From: an uncultured Alphaproteobacteria bacterium
Lineage (GTDB): Bacteria; Pseudomonadota; Alphaproteobacteria; RF32; CAG-239
Length of the DNA stretch: 64,000 nucleotides
Assembly (NCBI GenBank): GCA_944393665.1
Contig: CALYAX010000004.1
Span: 13,479 to 77,478, forward strand
Direction: 5' to 3'
Below are positions 1-18,000 of the stretch, piece after piece (positions within the stretch are counted from its first letter, which is position 1; every line of letters begins with the position of its first letter). The position numbers are program-made.

Positions 1-3000
1 AACCGCATTTTTCTTGGCGTTATAGTTTTCTTTGGAGGCATTTGCTTCCTCTGCCGTGGCTGAATACTGTTTTTTCTTTGCTTCTTCAACTTCTTTCCGG
101 GATTCTTCATTCAAGCCATCGATATCGGACTGCTGAGTGGCGGCCCGTTGTCCGGCCAGCTCGCCCTGTTTATCCTGAGCGGCTTTTAATTCCTGAGAAG
201 CCAATTCAAAGGAAGTTTTGGCCTCCTGGCATTTGGCCATATCTTTTTCCGACGTACCTGAACAATATTTATTGATATTGTTTTGTGCTTTGTCCGCCGC
301 CTTTTGAGCACTTTTTATATCTTTGGCATTTTGATTTTCAGCCTTGATTAATTCTTTATTGGCTTGTTTGTTTAACTGGTCCGCCTCTTCTTCTGCAGAT
401 TGGGCGGCAGCGCGCAATTTGTCTACATCCGCTCCCTCCGTTGCCTGCAACGTTGCTAATTTCTCTTGCGCGACATCCAAATCATTACAGTTACCAGTCT
501 GATTACATTTTTGCCGGGCAACGGCAATTTCTTTGTTCGCTGCCGCCAGCTTTTCTTTATAGGCCTGGTTGGCCTGTTCATATTTCTGCTGCTCAACAGC
601 CCAGACATCTTTTGATGCCCCGGCCTTTTCCGCCGTTGTCGGTTCAATCTTATTCAGAGTTTGATTCATCGGCGCAAGCTGAATTTCGTCCAGAGGGTTT
701 CCCACCGTGACAGGTTCTCCCGCAGCCAGAGTATCAGACGACCAGAAAGAGGCAAACACCAAAGCACCGGCAAATACCCAGATTTTGCTGATTTTCTTTA
801 AGTTAAACATGGCGTCCTCCTTCATTTTTTAGTCACCCTCCGGTGAGGAATGCTGAAATCATTCAGCCGACAATAATTTCTGTCATTTAAGCGTATCGGT
901 TATCATACTCTGCGTAAAATCCGTACAGCCCGTTATGGCGGTTATCAGTTCGCCGGTACTGGCAATGACCACCAGTGCAATAACGATGGCGCCGAGCCAT
1001 TTCCAGTTTAAGTTTCCGAAAAAGCCGCCAACAGCCACGCCGATGATGCCGAAACCGGCAACAACGTAAATCAAATCGCGCAGGCCCTGAAAAATTTTGC
1101 TTCCGGTATTAATTAAACCGCTGAACAAACCGGTATTTTTGGTGCAGCCGGTAACCACGCCGGTGGGTTGTTCAACTTGCACGCCAATAGGTTTGACAGC
1201 TTCACATTGACCGGTATTTTCATTTAAGGTCTGTCCGTCTGGGCAACGCTCTTCAAGCGTTTGAATATTTTTATCATTGTGAATAGACCTGTCTGACTGC
1301 CGCTCAACCCGGGTGGGACTTACTGTATCTTTATAGTCATAAGAACCATCCCTGTTCAAACGGACACATTTTCCACCCGTGTAGACATATCCCTGCGGAC
1401 AAGTCTGGTCTACAACGACAGCTTTAACATTTTCGATTATTCCAAAAACACTAAAAAGCGCTATGAGCATCAGCAGCTGACATATTTTCTTAAAGTTTTT
1501 CATAGCACCCTCCTTAGTTCTCAGTTCTTTCCCCGGGCGGGAGATTTCTGAAATAATCCAGAATAAGTTCGTTCTGCGGCGATGAACTTGGACATTCAGT
1601 CTGCAGACAGCGGCCGAATGCCGAAATTCATCTGTTTGTCTGGTAAAAAAGAGGGTCATGGTGAGAGTTTAAAACCTACTGCCGCCAGGACCCCCTTTAT
1701 ACCCTGCTCCTCTTTTCCGAGAGGCGGCAGATATCTGCCGCCCCAGGGTATAAAGAAGGAGACTATTAGTCGGTAGCGCGGTCGAAAGAGTCCTCGAAGC
1801 CCGACATATTTTCACCGGTCGCGTAGTTAACGATAGAACCGGCAGCAGCCAGGATTGCAAGACCGACAGCCAGACCCGCAAACCATTTCCAGTTTACTTT
1901 ACCAAAGATGGCACCAAAGGCGACGCCAACCAGACCGAAACCGCCGACAACGAAGATAATCGTTTTAACAGCGGTGAAGACATTCAGGGCTTTTTCCTTG
2001 GAGGTGGTCATAACGCTGTTCTGCGCCATTGCATCACCGGAGAAAGCCATCAGGGTAGCAACAGCTACCAGGCAGAATGTCCAGATGTTGTTTTTAAGAA
2101 ATTGCATTGTAGTTCTCCTTCATATGATTGCAAAAACTCTTTATACTCTTTTAGAATAACTAATTTCGGGACTGATTACCAGCAAAATTGCTTATACCGA
2201 CAATTGATTAACATATTGTTTACACTTGATAATTTTTGCTGTAACAAAAAATTCACAGTCGTTAAAAGTTGGTAAACTTCTGAAATTTAAGCAACTTTCA
2301 CAAAACTGCAACATTACTGCCCGCAGGGCGATTCTGCACCGGCTTTGGTAAAAATCTTGTTAATCTTCCCCTAAAAAAGCAAAAAATTTTAATTTAAAAG
2401 AATCCACAGGAAAAAGCGATATTTTCATAAGCTGTTGCCAAGAGTCGCATTTTGATTTATCAAGGGTTTAGAGGGGTTTAATTTATGCCGAAAACAGGTT
2501 TAAAAACTTTTGTTTACAGCTTTAGCGTATCTTTGCTGACGATTTTTACCGTCAACGGGGTTTACTGGCATGAAACAAACTCTTCTCAAACGGATCTTAC
2601 CATTCCCAGCCAAAACATCACCCTGTTTCTTAACCGCCACGCGGACAACCCCTCAATCCGTCCGGTTCCGGTTAAGAAAATTGCGCTGACCGTTTTGCCG
2701 GCGGCAGGTCCCGCAGGCGGCAATAATGTTCTCTCCTCCTCGGCAGAGCCGGAGATTATTATGGCCGACACAACCGACGTTCTGGAAATTCCGCTGGAAT
2801 TCGGAGATTTTTCTGCGCAGAATGATGAAAACCGGCCCCGGCCGCAAAAAATTGCCGCTCATTTTGAGCAGATGATTCATAATCCGCCCCCGCCGGCCGC
2901 TGCTCCGGCACTCCCGGAGAGAAAGGCCTCAGCGGAACCCAATTCCCCGGCAGCCGATAATTTCAGGCCTTCAGCAGCCCTGCAAAAGACAGAGGAGCGC

Positions 3001-15000: not shown

Positions 15001-18000
15001 ATTGTAGGCATTTTCACCTCGCTGCTAATTTCTTTGGTATAACTTTAACATTATATACCTTAAGAAAAGTTAAAAGAGGTAAGATGACAGGTGATTAAAA
15101 TAATAATTGAGTGAAGATGAAACAGGATTACGGCAAAATAATTTTCTGGCTGGTTACTGCCGTTGAGGCGGCACTGCTGCAACATGCCTTGTTTGGCAGT
15201 TACGGCTGTATCGGGGTAATTCTGGCGGGAATGACCGCGCTGCTTTTCTGGGGACTGGTTTTAACCCTCCCGCGGGGTGTTATTGCTGTTCTGCTGGTTC
15301 TCCAGGCTCTGATTTTCTGGCTGCTGCTGGTCTGGCACAGCCACTTTGAGGATCCGCTGTCTTTGCAGCTGATGAGCACCTCCTATCAGGAAGGCCTGCA
15401 GTTTGCGGCTGCTTCATGGCCTGCGCTGCTGACTTTTCCGGTTGCGGTTATGCTGGCTGCAACCGGTGTCCAGCTGATTTATATTCTGAAATTCTGGCGC
15501 CCTCTGGCTGATAAATTTATCCTGCGGCTGGTTTGCGGAATCCCGTTGTTGTTTATTATCCTGACGGCGGCAAAATCTTTTTACAAAGAAGGATTTGTTT
15601 ACACCGATTTTAAATTTATTACCCGCACCGCCGGTTATCCCTCTGGCTGGTTTTATGAATTATTGACTGATTTTCAAAGCTCGCGTCTGTTTGATGAAAT
15701 TATAAAAAACGCCAACCGGCCGACACCGCCGCTGCCTCCCGAGCTGAAACAGATCCGCCTGCCGGAACATTTGTTTGTTATCCAGGTAGAAAGCTTGGAT
15801 TATGCCGGATTTGCCAAACCCGGGGTTATGCCGTTTTTACAACGACTGGCAGCGGAAAGCTATGTTTATGAAATCCGGCCCAAACGACGCCATCAATCGG
15901 CTAATTCCGATTTTATGATGCTTTCCAAAGCGACGAATTTTGAGCAATATTATTTTGCAATTTACACCCTGCTGCCGCCGGAAGATTATGAAAAGTTTGT
16001 CCCGCTGCCCCGCAAAGTGCGTGAGATGGGTTACCAGTCGGCTTTTTACCATGGCTTTTCCAAACGCTTTTACCAACGTGAAAAAGGTATTCCGGCAATG
16101 GGTTTTGACCGCTCATGGTTTTGGGAAAATCTGCCGATTAAAGCCGCCGAAGGAGCCTGGGGTTTTGATGACGGCGATTTGTTTGATTTTGTGCTTGAGG
16201 AAGACAGCAGCCGTCCGGAAGAAAAACAGCTGCATATGATTGTTACGGTGTCTTCACACGAAAATTACGATGCCGGAGCCAGGCAAAAACAGCCGCACAG
16301 GCAGCCGAAAAACCGCAAAGAATTATATGAAAACGCCTTGAATTATGTTGATGCCTCTTTGCAACGGCTGATAGAAAATGCTCCGCAAAGTTCGTTATTT
16401 TTTATTTATTCAGACCATCAAAGCGGAGAAAATACGGATACGCGGACGCTCCTGTTCATTTATGACAAGCAACACCCGCGGGCTTTTCACGGAATAACCG
16501 ATTTTGCGGATGTGCCGCTGCTGCTGCACGGGCTGGTTGAGAATCAATCAACATCCCAGGGAAAAACCAGCCAGCGGTCAGGCAGTTTTTGAGCAAACAG
16601 GTCAACGGCGCTTTCTCCGGCAGCTTTGACATACACAGAGGCAAAGCAGGCTTGCGGGTAAATTTGGCGCAGCAGCTTAAACGTCCGGCCGCTGTCGGAA
16701 ATATCATCAATAACCAAAGTATGTTCATCAGCAGCTTTATCGGCGCGGAGTTCAACCGCCCCGTCATCGCGGCGCCGCCCTCCGGCATCATAGCCGGACA
16801 TATTAACCGCCTCGCAATCGCGAATATCAAGCTCATAAGCCAGTATTCCGGCCGGAAGCAGTCCGCCGCGGCTTACGGCAAGGATACGGGTATATTTTTT
16901 TCCGGATTGTCTGATTAATTCCGCAAGAGAGCGGCAATGCGCATGGAAATCTTCCCAGCTTAGATAGAGTTTGTCAGTCATAAAAAATTTCAGTCCTTAT
17001 TATCAGCTGTTTTGAGCTTTTATTTTATAAATTTGTTCAATCACGTCTTCATCATCCCAGTCGACTGAGCCGCGAATACGCCCGATTTCTTCACTTTTGG
17101 AATTCACCAGCACGGTATGAGGCGAAGCAAAAATGCCAAAATCCTCAGCCAGCTTGCCGTTGGGGTCAACATAAAAATCAAGGTCGGAAGCATGATATTT
17201 TGCCAGGAATTTACGCTGCTCGGCGGTGTTTGCCCATTCATTTTCATTAGAAATCAGCAAAACCTTAATACCGGTTCCGGCGGTTTTTCTCACAAAATTG
17301 TTCAAATCATCAAGTTCGCGAACGCAGGGAAGACAGGTTTTAGACCAGAAAACCGCAATGACGAACTCCCCCTTAAAATCGGAAAGTTTAAGCTTATTGC
17401 CGGCCGAGCCGTAAAACTCCCGGGCGGGAGCCTCACGCGGATAAGCAAACAGGTTCAGCCCTTTTTCGCGGGCCTGGGCGCTGTTTGCCAAAGCCAGCAG
17501 ACCTATACAAATTGCCATAAATTTTTTAAACATGGAACCTCTGCATAACTTAATTTTTGCTTAACCCTTCTCGAGTATATAGTTATAATATATTCCAAAA
17601 CAAGTAAAGGGGAAGTAAATGAAACAACTTTTATTGCTGGGACTGCTGATTGTTTGTCTGGGCCTGAGCGCCTGCGGAAAAATGTCGATGCCGGAACCCT
17701 ACCCCGACAGCGGCTACCCGCACACTTATCCGCGCCAATAATACAAGGAAAGAGGTTATGCCTGACAATTTTGAAAATGAAATGATTCCCTATGTGGAAT
17801 TTGCCGACAATGCCAACGAGCGAACCCCCTGCGTGCTGGTGCTGGACTGTTCCGGCTCCATGCGCGGCGAACCGATTAAACAGCTGAATATGGGCCTGAA
17901 AGCGCTTGAAAAAGAGCTCAAGGAAGATATTGATGCCTCGTCGCGGGTGCAGCTGCTGATTATTAAGGCCTTTGGCAAAGATGAAGCGGTCATTTCCTCC

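Follow-up and report, generated by a model that had tools for sequence, protein, structure and literature searches.

Do VirB2-type pilin genes that stand back to back with a thin-pilus-like operon build one appendage together, or do they mark the border between two machines? The question is raised by a 64-kb stretch of DNA (the window) from an uncultured gut alphaproteobacterium, in which a first-pass annotation had proposed a hybrid appendage that joins VirB2 pilins to a pilus machine, co-regulated through a shared promoter region. The feature list (Table 1) upholds the presence of two appendage systems back to back, and the divergence of the VirB2-type genes from the pilus operon. The two leftward VirB2 genes described earlier are both present, yet the count needs correction: the window holds these two plus the 5' start of a third, which runs from 825 past the left edge, all divergent from a compact type IVb pilus (pil) operon.

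Table 1. Features at the border between the VirB2-domain genes and the pil operon (positions within the window).
Feature	Position	Strand	Evidence and remarks
VirB2c, 5' part (first 275 codons)	1..825	-	ORF continues past left window edge
VirB2b, 206 aa	883..1503	-	Pfam TrbC 20.9 bits at C-terminal part, under threshold; ORF open to 1659
GC-rich stem-loop directly 3' of virB2a stop codon	1660..1765	-	MFE -59.2 kcal/mol, z = -6.05
VirB2a, 113 aa, first T4SS operon gene	1766..2107	-	PF04956 TrbC/VirB2 41.5 bits vs gathering score 27.9
Divergent control region, AT-rich, 377 bp	2108..2484	.	Alignment of 39 species
First pil gene, 667 aa	2485..4488	+	Without Pfam or NCBIfam match
TcpQ-domain lipoprotein, 236 aa	4575..5285	+	PF10671 59.1 bits vs 27; lipobox LGGC
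PilN-family lipoprotein secretin	5272..6876	+	TIGR02520 283.1 bits, 4.5 bits short of cut-off 287.65; lipobox IASC
PilO-like bitopic assembly protein	6899..8176	+	PF06864 PAP_PilO 39.8 bits vs 26.7
PilP-like secreted protein, long coiled-coil insert	8166..9596	+	TIGR03021 26.9 bits, under cut-off 34.65; PilP position
Extension ATPase, PilQ/BfpD-like, GspE family	9606..11288	+	PF00437 218.5 bits
Platform protein, PilR/BfpE-like, GspF family	11299..12438	+	PF00482 90.6 bits
Pilin-fold protein, uncleaved	12440..13030	+	Bundlin and PilS Pfam matches; start 1 nt past pilR stop codon
Type IVb prepilin, PilS/bundlin family	13171..13773	+	PF08805 63.6 bits, PF05307 43.9 bits
Retraction-type ATPase, BfpF/PilT2-like	14046..15017	-	PilT family 106 bits
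Polytopic sulfatase-family protein, just outside pilus locus	15111..16592	+	PF00884 65.8 bits

By its domain match, VirB2a is a canonical short VirB2/TrbC pilin, 36% identical to TrbC/VirB2 of the Microvirga plasmid pMVF16-3. Its two neighbours are extended paralogs. VirB2b, which gene calls on six contigs make 206 aa long (its true start is thus probably 1503 rather than 1659), begins with a signal peptide, continues into a Cys-rich domain of ~120 aa that varies across species, and ends in a conserved, nearly invariant VirB2 domain. VirB2c reaches 1363 aa at full length (the whole gene was taken from the identical contig L085 and the relative L087) and combines a secreted coiled-coil N-terminus with a VirB2-like hairpin at residues 464–503 (18.4 bits against Pfam TrbC, under threshold) and a long C-terminal extension. 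Alignment revealed a GFG...WKW core common to all three proteins and plasmid VirB2 proteins. The stem-loop behind virB2a probably acts as an attenuator within the operon or stabilises the mRNA; 30 of 54 species have a hairpin at the equivalent position, its stem at least 7 bp long and of differing sequence.

What lies left of the window was read from an identical contig of another assembly rather than from the window's own, and from same-species contigs joined at 99–100% identity. Contig L085, 100% identical to window positions 1–12107, continues leftward through VirB2b, the complete VirB2c, a 96-aa gene and VirB4; across identical and near-identical contigs, the order downstream of VirB2a is VirB2b, VirB2c, VirB3 (assigned by position and size only) and VirB4. 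Further left follow two VirB8 genes, VirB9/CagX, a 1104-aa Bflower/RHS protein, VirB10 (TrbI plus Bflower) and VirB11, with the matches of VirB4, VirB9 and VirB11 to their HMMs falling under the curated cut-offs. The resulting operon of ~30 kb thus comprises three VirB2 genes, VirB3, VirB4, lineage-specific secreted proteins, two VirB8 genes, VirB9, the beta-flower/RHS giant, a giant VirB10 and VirB11. Beyond it lies a convergent operon of four TrbL/VirB6-like genes, one of which carries a fused Peptidase_M23 domain, and every contig stops 3–4 kb past this VirB6 operon. Because L085 and the linked contigs carry VirB3, VirB4 and VirB8–B11, the VirB2 genes are, on gene content, the promoter-proximal genes of an ordinary, if unusual, VirB-type type IV secretion system (T4SS), and the hybrid appendage proposed earlier loses its footing. 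The closest plasmid relative of this T4SS is again Microvirga pMVF16-3 (VirB4 37% identical), which is devoid of pil genes.

On the other side of the control region, pil genes overlap or are separated by at most 22 nt, with two exceptions: the first junction (~57–87 nt to the called start of the TcpQ-domain lipoprotein) and a 140-nt gap ahead of the prepilin. The product of the first gene has a membrane anchor at its N-terminus, from which a long linker rich in Pro, Ala and Ser leads to a conserved OmpA/Pal/MotB-like C-terminal domain; its last 94 residues are 73–94% conserved in 65 loci. Its AlphaFold model (pLDDT 80, core >95) best matched the peptidoglycan-binding domains of Pal, OprF and MotB in Foldseek (E ~1e-5), suggesting that the protein is probably the peptidoglycan anchor of the pilus machine. 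A PilL-like gene had been annotated correctly as present, although its counterpart is the TcpQ-domain gene—by its domain the PilL/BfpG/TcpQ-type secretin partner—and not the 667-aa gene. The secretin shares 30% identity with annotated plasmid PilN proteins along 95% of its length, with MshL as the next-best family (110 bits) and GspD at 40 bits. Plasmid homologues likewise exist for the PilO-like protein (24% identical to PilO2 of a Hydrogenophaga plasmid), the platform protein (30%) and the extension ATPase (38–39% to alphaproteobacterial plasmid homologues, 33.5% to the ATPase at the PilQ position on the Hydrogenophaga plasmid, 35–36% to BfpD), which is 76–92% conserved across 80 species. 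The PilP-like gene is present in 79 of 80 loci.

Two pilin-fold genes follow, as annotated before. The upstream one, found in 78 of 80 loci, has a signal-anchor helix where the class III signal peptide would be, and an alignment of 31 homologues shows no conserved G(-1)/E5; its AlphaFold model (pLDDT 94.8) matched Salmonella Typhi PilS, CofA and TcpA most closely in Foldseek. In the prepilin proper the leader is short and the cleavage motif reads G|RSMVEM; the gene occurs in one to four tandem copies per species. The N-terminus of the protein, G|RSMVEMLGVLAIIGVLS, is conserved almost without change, and 101 of 101 pilin genes from relatives encode Arg at +1. As to the ATPase described as PilT/DotB, the PilT part holds and the DotB match is the weaker (8e-21 and 1e-15, respectively, for the nearest solved structures in the PDB); over 97% of its length the protein is 32–34% identical to BfpF and to the post-pilin ATPase of plasmid type IVb pilus clusters, and its true orthologue (68–83% identity) adjoins the pil locus in ~50 of 80 loci. 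The sulfatase-family gene next to it adjoins the pilin genes in 14 loci, ahead of pilT where pilT is present, and from this position its product might possibly be a pilus accessory enzyme.

Since PilN is the best-scoring secretin family, PAP_PilO, TcpQ, PilS and bundlin domains are present, the fold matches are to PilS, CofA and TcpA and the retraction ATPase is BfpF-like, the predicted machine belongs to the R64/PAPI-1/BFP (type IVb) class, and not to type IVa pili or type II secretion. There is precedent for its pairing with a T4SS: on the conjugative Hydrogenophaga plasmid, VirB10 is directly followed by TcpQ-TcpQ-PilN-PilO2-...-pilin-ATPase-PilM-ATPase-PilV. Our search found no publication describing a domesticated pair of a T4SS and a retractile type IVb pilus.

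Does the spacer between the operons act as one switch? Alignment placed two conserved blocks near virB2, at 2207–2223 (GTTAACA-TAT-TGTTTAC-like) and 2239–2259 (CTGTAAC-N9-ACAG), and one near pil, at 2434–2461 (TTGCCA-17-TATCAA); no other copy of these motifs was found in the window or the T4SS loci. The pil block recurs in 68 loci, among them the ones that have no virB2 next to pil. In L022, L025 and L028, virB2 lies downstream of the pilins (with VirB3-VirB4 next in L022 and L028), and the virB2 blocks travel together with it. The 377-bp spacer therefore consists of two separable promoter/operator modules, each belonging to its own operon, and not of one shared switch; their independence weakens the case for obligatory co-regulation through a common promoter region. 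No RNA run was found to contain the locus.

The pil operon was recovered from 80 of 80 related gut and rumen species sampled. T4SS genes lie within 10 kb of it in ~65 of these loci, in two different arrangements: virB2 divergent from the pil operon (50 loci), or a VirB6-like operon as its divergent upstream neighbour (13 loci). Housekeeping genes rather than T4SS genes lie upstream in a few species (L019, L020). The chromosomal neighbours are the housekeeping genes rnpA, yidC, engB, cmk and rpsA, and the locus keeps the same neighbours in ~40 species. In line with the earlier description, GC3 and codon usage of the locus fall within the core-gene range, from which an AAA_21/RloB islet differs. 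Pairwise distances of PilQ and PilN correlate with those of a flanking kinase at rho 0.69–0.73, and flanking genes among themselves do no better (0.64–0.66). Given this conservation, codon usage and divergence in step with flanking genes, sequence comparison identifies the pil operon as vertically inherited and both machines as fixed chromosomal traits of the lineage (CAG:495/Scatocola type, uncultured gut Alphaproteobacteria).

Mobility functions were missing from every region searched. Homologues of VirD4, MobA, PilM and PilV were found neither in 1.99 Mb of lineage loci nor, by Pfam, in the window or its left flank; no coupling protein, relaxase, integrase, prepilin peptidase, PilM, PilV or shufflon was detected in ~50 kb leftward, the 64-kb window or ~2 Mb of related loci; and ~50 kb left, 49 kb right and 2 Mb of related loci yielded no att-like repeat. 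Across these regions the locus is hence not mobile in cis, as had been suspected from the window's gene content, and the T4SS in the ~50 kb to the left does not amount to a complete mobile backbone.

These observations bear on what the two halves do together. Each system is self-sufficient on paper, because VirB2 has its canonical VirB set and the pil operon its own class III prepilin. It seems extremely unlikely, then, that the type IVb secretin/ATPase machine assembles or exports VirB2-type pilins, or the reverse, to make one hybrid fibre: such a chimeric organelle is favoured only by the head-to-head arrangement and by the additional domains that two of three VirB2 paralogs carry, whereas VirB3, VirB4 and a full VirB8–B11 set follow VirB2 in canonical order, the prepilin signal is intact, and the VirB2 proteins carry Sec rather than class III signal peptides. 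It is also very unlikely that the locus still belongs to a conjugative or integrative element and forms a working mating apparatus like those of IncI plasmids and PAPI-1, with relaxase, coupling protein and peptidase elsewhere or past the contig ends. The closest annotated relatives of both modules do sit on conjugative plasmids, PAPI-1 and TP114 use type IVb pili of this class to stabilise mating (PMC5297154, PMC9045228), and the far left border lies beyond the available contigs; but the lack of mobility genes in the regions searched, the constant chromosomal neighbours and the core-like codon usage all argue against it, and the giant beta-flower VirB10, multiplied VirB2 and VirB6 and absent PilV/shufflon set the locus apart from mating systems.

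A somewhat unlikely but more substantial alternative is that both machines are real and chromosomal yet independent, the pilus serving adhesion or twitching and the T4SS its own task, so that their adjacency is a frozen ancestral conjugative gene order. The separable control modules and the species without T4SS genes upstream of the pil operon are consistent with this, as are the different origins of the halves, which follow from their differing closest plasmid relatives: pMVF16-3 lacks pil genes, and the plasmids that hold the nearest relatives of the pil genes have another T4SS (VirB4 22% identical). Inertia alone, however, would not be expected to maintain a linkage that holds in ~65 of 80 loci and survives at least two gene orders, including a VirB6-like operon upstream of pil and virB2 downstream of the pilins. 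We think it probable that two separate, seemingly complete envelope machines meet in this stretch, both derived from conjugative-element modules and now chromosomally fixed, namely an extending and retracting pilus and a T4SS for contact or protein delivery, probably used sequentially on the same target.

In the mechanism we propose, the pilus would extend, attach to a surface or another cell via its variable pilin domain, and then retract. The T4SS would assemble a fibre of VirB2 that displays the extended paralogs; this fibre may serve for close contact or to deliver proteins, and not for the transfer of DNA. The two machines, whose linkage suggests cooperation, would probably work in sequence on the same target, by analogy with thin pili and T4SS in liquid mating. 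For this lineage of gut Alphaproteobacteria, the seemingly 'orphan' VirB2 pilins are then ordinary secretion-system parts, not pieces of a hybrid appendage.

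The VirB2-type pilin genes at the left edge of the window, which the first-pass annotation had described as one half of a chromosomal ‘hybrid appendage’, stand divergent from a type IVb pilus (T4bP) operon, and an inventory of the window based on an ORF listing and HMM scans (Pfam, NCBIfam) confirmed that layout. In the alignment, VirB2a, VirB2b and plasmid VirB2 proteins have a GFG...WKW core in common. The region further left was reconstructed from public contigs encoding the identical proteins, and not from the window's own assembly; one such contig (L085) is 100% identical to window positions 1-12107 and two others (L081 and L084) are 99% identical. 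Walking along these contigs, VirB2a and VirB2b (206/258 aa) are followed by a 1363-aa protein, a 96-aa gene in VirB3 position and VirB4, then by five proteins without family matches (540, 193, 399, 186 and 448 aa) and a 1343-aa protein, and finally by VirB8, a 52-62-aa gene, a second VirB8, VirB9/CagX, a 1104-aa beta-flower/RHS protein, VirB10 and VirB11. VirB10 joins beta-flower repeats to TrbI, and its length differs between strains (1513 vs 1530 aa). Because the VirB3-position gene, VirB4 and VirB8-VirB11 come next on the left-flank contigs, the VirB2 genes are the first genes of a roughly 30-kb VirB-type type IV secretion system (T4SS) operon, whose VirB4, VirB8, VirB9, VirB10 and VirB11 core is contiguous with VirB2. 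These VirB2 genes only look ‘orphan’ next to the pilus operon: the window cuts through a full T4SS and they form its edge, which corrects a tempting misreading.

Assignments in the left flank come from contigs that match the window at 99% or 100% identity. VirB4 reached 369 bits on TIGR00929 and VirB11 140 bits on TIGR02788, both VirB8 proteins matched PF04335, VirB9 matched CagX and VirB10 matched TrbI. Every NCBIfam score (VirB4, VirB8, VirB9, VirB11) fell below its equivalog cut-off, and the members of this T4SS are therefore divergent. Beyond VirB11, right beside the T4SS, a convergent operon encodes four TrbL/VirB6-like proteins of 807, 430, 1017 and 919 aa, together with an XRE-type regulator and four proteins without matches. 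The 919-aa protein scored 29.6 bits on TrbL (threshold 25.9), the other three 17.8-23.9 bits, below threshold; the 1017-aa protein carries a Peptidase_M23 domain. Inspection of the left flank, proposed along with the first-pass annotation, has thus returned a VirB3-position gene, VirB4, VirB8-VirB11 and four VirB6-like genes. The four contigs shown with the VirB6-paralog operon (within L097-L101) stop ~2.7-4 kb further left, after five small unmatched genes, and a repeat or an rRNA operon may break the assemblies there.

Features of the pilus and secretion loci and their surroundings (window positions unless a contig is named)
Feature	Position	Strand	Description
Third VirB2-domain gene, 5' part	1-825	-	N-terminus of the 1363-aa protein; VirB2-like hairpin at residues 464-503, TrbC domain below threshold
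VirB2b	883-1503 (ORF open to 1659)	-	Signal peptide, Cys-rich domain of ~120 aa, VirB2 domain 20.9 bits (below threshold)
GC-rich hairpin	1660-1765	-	Directly after the virB2a stop codon; -59.2 kcal/mol, z = -6
VirB2a	1766-2107	-	113 aa, Sec signal peptide, two hydrophobic helices; PF04956 TrbC/VirB2 41.5 bits (gathering score 27.9)
Pil-proximal conserved block	2434-2461		28 nt
Pilin-fold protein, probably uncleaved	12440-13030	+	Start 1 nt after the pilR stop codon; kept in 78/80 loci
True prepilin, PilS/bundlin type	13171-13773	+	PF08805 63.6 bits; class III motif G↓RSMVEM (Gly -1, Glu +5)
Conserved prepilin N-terminus	13171-13260	+
PilT-family ATPase, 323 aa	14046-15017	-	Convergent with the pil operon; PilT family is the best match
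Inverted segment	14046-16592		PilT-like ATPase gene and adjoining sulfatase-family membrane-protein gene
PP2C phosphatase and Ser/Thr kinase	18362-20638		Gene pair
Low-GC islet	22197-24081		AAA_21 ATPase and RloB-like protein
Autotransporter	28488-31835		1115 aa
Flagellin	38840-40750		636 aa
Beta-flower giants, VirB10 and four VirB6-like paralogs	L095 6686-14593; L097 252-9842		Contigs of the same species, left of the window

Beyond a 377-bp AT-rich spacer, the pil operon runs tightly packed on the plus strand. Its first gene encodes a 667-aa protein that matched nothing in Pfam, NCBIfam, PHROGs or a PDB sequence search and has no similarity to the large TcpQ-domain protein in the same position on a Hydrogenophaga plasmid; its C-terminal 94 residues are 73-94% conserved in relatives. 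Structure prediction alone gave matches, which make it OmpA-like: the AlphaFold model (core pLDDT > 95) resembles the peptidoglycan-binding domains of Pal, OprF and MotB, and the protein is probably the cell-wall anchor of the pilus machine. Upstream of the secretin lies a TcpQ-domain lipoprotein (PF10671 59.1 bits vs 27; lipobox LGGC), whose gene overlaps the secretin gene by 14 nt. The secretin, itself with a lipobox (IASC), scored best on TIGR02520 (PilN) with 283.1 bits, 4.5 below the equivalog cut-off of 287.65, as compared to 110 for MshL and 40 for GspD, and is 30% identical to annotated PilN over 95% of its length; judged by these scores, it is clearly homologous to the PilN family and just misses equivalog status. 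PilO was recognized by PF06864 PAP_PilO (39.8 bits vs 26.7), and the PilP candidate, with only 26.9 bits on TIGR03021 (cut-off 34.65), occupies the expected PilP position. The extension ATPase PilQ (PF00437, 218.5 bits) is 33-39% identical to BfpD and plasmid PilQ homologues, and the platform protein matched PF00482 with 90.6 bits.

Both pilin-fold genes at the end of the operon match the Bundlin Pfam family. The product of the upstream gene gave a model with pLDDT 94.8 and structural matches to S. Typhi PilS, CofA and TcpA; its signal-anchor helix is not conserved, lacks Gly(-1)/Glu(+5) and stands where a cleavable class III signal would be expected. It therefore reads as a protein that probably stays in the membrane with its pilin fold, and it may be a membrane-retained component of the pilus base. 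The downstream gene encodes a true prepilin with a leader of only ~11 aa, and its N-terminus, G↓RSMVEMLGVLAIIGVLS, is near-unchanged in 101 pilin genes of relatives (L002-L080), with Arg at +1 in all of them. To our knowledge, neither a pilin-fold protein with a permanent membrane anchor nor an invariant Arg +1 in a prepilin has been described for type IV pili. Species carry 1-4 tandem copies of the pilin gene with differing globular domains, a variation that looks like antigenic or receptor variation via gene duplication, not a shufflon. Because the second gene encodes a true prepilin, a prepilin peptidase must exist, encoded outside the locus; no Peptidase_A24 match (PilU/BfpP/TcpJ) was found among most window ORFs of >= 150 aa and the left-flank genes.

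The 323-aa ATPase had been labelled PilT/DotB. Its relationship to PilT and BfpF holds, in that this family is the best match and the protein is 32-34% identical, over 95-98% of its length, to BfpF as well as to the ATPase encoded after the pilin in plasmid clusters. The DotB reading was rejected, since scores are higher, and alignments full-length, with PilT/BfpF relatives. Given the full-length alignment with BfpF, the pilus is probably retractile. Together with the adjoining gene for a sulfatase-family membrane protein, the ATPase gene is inverted compared with several relatives (e.g., the loci L039 and L043), and two loci (L006, L008) show a larger inversion extending to the kinase gene. 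Around the inverted segment, we found only short repeats at chance level and no flanking repeats. A possible role for the sulfatase-family protein is that of a transferase modifying the pilin.

When one genome per species was scanned, 80 loci came back; Alphaproteobacteria assembled from gut or rumen metagenomes (CAG:495, “Candidatus Scatocola” and similar) account for nearly all of them, and some few records are labelled otherwise. The locus was found in DNA metagenomes only (chicken, bovine and other guts), and in no RNA run. Across the 80 relatives the PilQ-like ATPase is 76-92% identical to that of the window, and most pil genes are present in 68-80 of the 80 loci, with many of the misses at contig ends. 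Pairwise divergence of PilQ and PilN correlated with that of the flanking Ser/Thr kinase (Spearman 0.69-0.73), and chromosomal neighbours correlated with one another no better (0.64-0.66). Because PilQ/PilN divergence tracks the neighbours and PilQ is more conserved than they are, the pattern fits vertical inheritance of the pil locus under purifying selection.

Synteny across these relatives, another check suggested at the outset, likewise showed the pil operon kept in 80 loci, with linkage to the T4SS in two arrangements. In arrangement A (50 loci, the window's among them), the virB operon is divergent from the pil operon; in arrangement B, a VirB6-like operon is the divergent upstream neighbour in 13 loci. 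Arrangement B also covers three loci (L022, L025 and L028) where virB2 comes after the pilins and is read in their direction, VirB3-VirB4 being next in line in L022 and L028; both sides of arrangement B are visible in L028 only. Arrangement C (L019 and L020) has housekeeping genes upstream, and L001 and L036 are likewise without a T4SS match upstream. Since T4SS genes adjoin the pil operon in both A and B, the linkage has been retained through at least one major rearrangement and is not universal.

Whether the two gene sets form one fibre, share their regulation or stand as two machines side by side is a question on which part lists and control regions both bear. A hybrid fibre was rejected, as neither system needs to borrow parts from the other: two self-sufficient machines, the VirB2 genes heading a full T4SS, meet at the divergent spacer. 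Alignment of this spacer from 39 species revealed two sets of blocks more conserved than the flanking coding sequence. The pil-proximal block, CTTGCCAAGAGTCGCATTTTGATTTATC, reads TTGCCA-17-TATCAA and lies ~20 nt upstream of the start codon; 68 loci have it, each in a single copy, arrangements B and C included, with 0-2 mismatches among the 17 loci printed, in species whose pil proteins are merely 30-92% identical to the window's. Its 17-nt spacer is conserved as well as the -35 and -10 hexamers, which suggests that a regulator binds there. The virB2-proximal blocks comprise an imperfect palindrome, GTTAACA-TAT-TGTTTAC, and CTGTAAC-N9-ACAG, and travel with virB2 in loci where virB2 has relocated. 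No further copies of either control motif were found in the window or the T4SS loci. Because the pil block persists without adjacent virB2 and the virB2 blocks move with virB2, each operon has its own control module; co-regulation, as first proposed, is possible and is not implied by this architecture. Within the virB operon, the GC-rich hairpin recurs at the same place in 30 of 54 species with differing stem sequences, as expected of an attenuator that keeps major pilin well in excess of the products encoded downstream; it probably acts as an attenuator or a stabiliser and raises major-pilin output relative to the downstream genes.

In the left-flank proteins and most window ORFs of >= 150 aa, spanning ~50 kb left and 49 kb right of the locus, Pfam and NCBIfam searches identified no relaxase, coupling protein or integrase. 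A complete mobile backbone left of the window, looked for as a point against domestication, was thus not what appeared there: the T4SS was found, with none of these three in ~50 kb. Queried by tblastn, VirD4 and MobA of Microvirga and PilM and PilV of Hydrogenophaga returned nothing in 1.99 Mb of lineage loci; a PilV homologue was likewise missing from the window and 2 Mb of related loci, a recombinase from the Pfam scan of the window, and shufflon-like repeats from positions 12000-17500. The absences originally listed (prepilin peptidase, PilM, PilV/shufflon, relaxase, coupling protein, integrase) hence persist in the scanned ORFs of window and left flank or, for PilM, PilV, VirD4 and MobA, in the 1.99 Mb of loci. 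No tRNA gene lies within 10 kb of the locus, and no repeats were seen to flank it. Housekeeping genes (rnpA, yidC, engB, cmk, rpsA, gpsA, murI) occupy the right part of the window. In GC3 and codon usage, the pil and virB2 genes fall inside the core-gene spread, from which the small AAA_21/RloB islet clearly departs. The view of a domesticated chromosomal system is supported by these core neighbours and core-like codon usage, by divergence in step with the flanking kinase and by the lack of mobility genes at the locus.

Several neighbours are observations in their own right. The PP2C phosphatase and Ser/Thr kinase pair is syntenic with the pil locus in ~40 species and could be a regulatory module for envelope machines. 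The low-GC islet (GC3 0.32-0.35 vs ~0.55 in core genes) is likely a horizontally acquired defence pair. An autotransporter and a flagellin, both encoded at most 25 kb from the pilus locus, are additional surface structures.

A literature search on RF32 / CAG-239 pili or secretion found no publication describing the locus. Its pil gene order (TcpQ lipoprotein, PilN, PilO, a PilP-position gene, GspE ATPase, GspF platform, pilin, PilT-type ATPase) is that of Pseudomonas aeruginosa PAPI-1 (pilL2-N2-O2-P2-Q2-R2-S2-T2-V2-M2; PMC5297154) and of plasmid relatives such as Hydrogenophaga sp. PBL-H3 pPBL-H3_B2-1. Proteins of the latter are 24-34% identical to the pil proteins here, the secretin's closest plasmid relative 30%. 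This conjugative plasmid has a T4SS in the order TraD, VirB11-like ATPase, VirB2, VirB3, VirB4 ... VirB9, VirB10, directly followed by TcpQ, TcpQ, PilN, PilO2, a PilP-position gene, ATPase, platform, prepilin, ATPase, PilM, ATPase and PilV. As its pil genes directly follow a VirB-type T4SS, the pairing of T4SS and T4bP has a mobile-element precedent, although the Hydrogenophaga T4SS is from another lineage (VirB4 22% identical). Unlike PAPI-1 and Hydrogenophaga, the locus here is chromosomal and vertically inherited and is without PilM, PilV, coupling protein or relaxase in cis, whereas the OmpA-like anchor heading the operon and the uncleaved pilin-fold protein after the platform gene are extra. 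Functional pairing of a thin pilus with a T4SS is documented for PAPI-1 and IncI plasmids (PMC5297154, PMC9045228).

The bundle-forming pilus of enteropathogenic E. coli (BFP; bfpA-L) is similar in being a retractile T4bP that pairs its lipoprotein secretin with a TcpQ-like protein and has one ATPase for extension and a dedicated one for retraction; PilQ shares 35-36% identity with BfpD, and the 323-aa ATPase 32-34% with BfpF over 97% of its length. BFP is itself plasmid-borne, with its own peptidase BfpP and minor pilins and without a neighbouring T4SS; the secretin here, in contrast, scores best with the PilN family, and the prepilin has a short leader and Arg +1. With the thin pili of IncI1 R64 and IncI2 TP114 (pilI-pilV with shufflon; PMC9045228), which accompany a T4SS and stabilise cell-cell contact, the locus shares a PilS-family major pilin and a PilN-family secretin (27-32% identical over 68% of the protein). 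The PilU peptidase, shufflon-diversified PilV adhesin and I-type (Dot/Icm-like) T4SS of R64-type clusters are all lacking here, and variation comes instead from the 1-4 tandem pilin genes with their near-identical N-terminus. Conversely, we know of no PilT-type ATPase in R64.

For the T4SS, the closest annotated relative is the MPF-T module of Microvirga sp. VF16 pMVF16-3 (VirB4 37% identical over 93%; VirB2a 36% identical to its TrbC/VirB2), where the VirB2-VirB3-VirB4 order recurs. The plasmid reads MobA/MobL - DnaB-like - VirB2-B3-B4 ... B8-B9-B10-B11 - VirD4, with the core order found here and without pil genes. In the gut lineage, relaxase, DnaB-like and VirD4 genes are missing in cis. 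The VirB2 domain occurs there in three genes, two of them with large extra domains, VirB8 is present twice, VirB10 is a beta-flower protein of ~1500 aa accompanied by a beta-flower/RHS giant, and a separate operon holds the four VirB6-like paralogs. With Hydrogenophaga and Microvirga plasmids as their respective nearest relatives, the pil and T4SS halves are of different origin. Compared with all these systems, the gut locus is without relaxase, coupling protein, PilM, PilV/shufflon and peptidase in cis, and has gained multiplied VirB2, VirB6 and VirB8, giant beta-flower proteins, an OmpA-like anchor and an uncleaved pilin-fold protein. By description, analogues of its T4SS are Rickettsiales rvh and Bartonella Trw, domesticated non-conjugative T4SSs that are chromosomal, vertically inherited, carry duplicated VirB2, VirB6 or VirB8-type genes and serve host or cell contact rather than plasmid transfer. 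The rvh system keeps VirD4, which was not found near the locus here, and we know of no report of an adjacent type IVb pilus for either.

We tentatively propose, as a reading we ourselves consider rather unlikely, that the T4bP and the embellished VirB-type T4SS make up a single contact apparatus that defines this lineage of uncultured gut Alphaproteobacteria, and to which the uncleaved pilin-fold anchor and the Arg +1 prepilin would belong. The pilus would catch and reel in a target cell (host, protist or bacterium), which the T4SS would then engage with no DNA transferred; the T4SS fibre would bear the domain-carrying VirB2 paralogs, and its outer part would be built of the beta-flower giants. 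If this holds, Arg +1 would imply an unusual peptidase specificity or N-terminal chemistry. The anchor, the Arg +1 prepilin and the VirB2 pilins with extra domains are testable oddities of a locus that shows how two modules derived from conjugation, each with an origin of its own, can become domesticated jointly. Human, ruminant and chicken guts widely harbour these uncultured Alphaproteobacteria. For them, ~60 kb of conserved contact machinery, comprising a probably retractile pilus and a T4SS with DNA-transfer genes not found nearby, is a large investment and points to a lifestyle built on attachment to, and perhaps action on, other cells.
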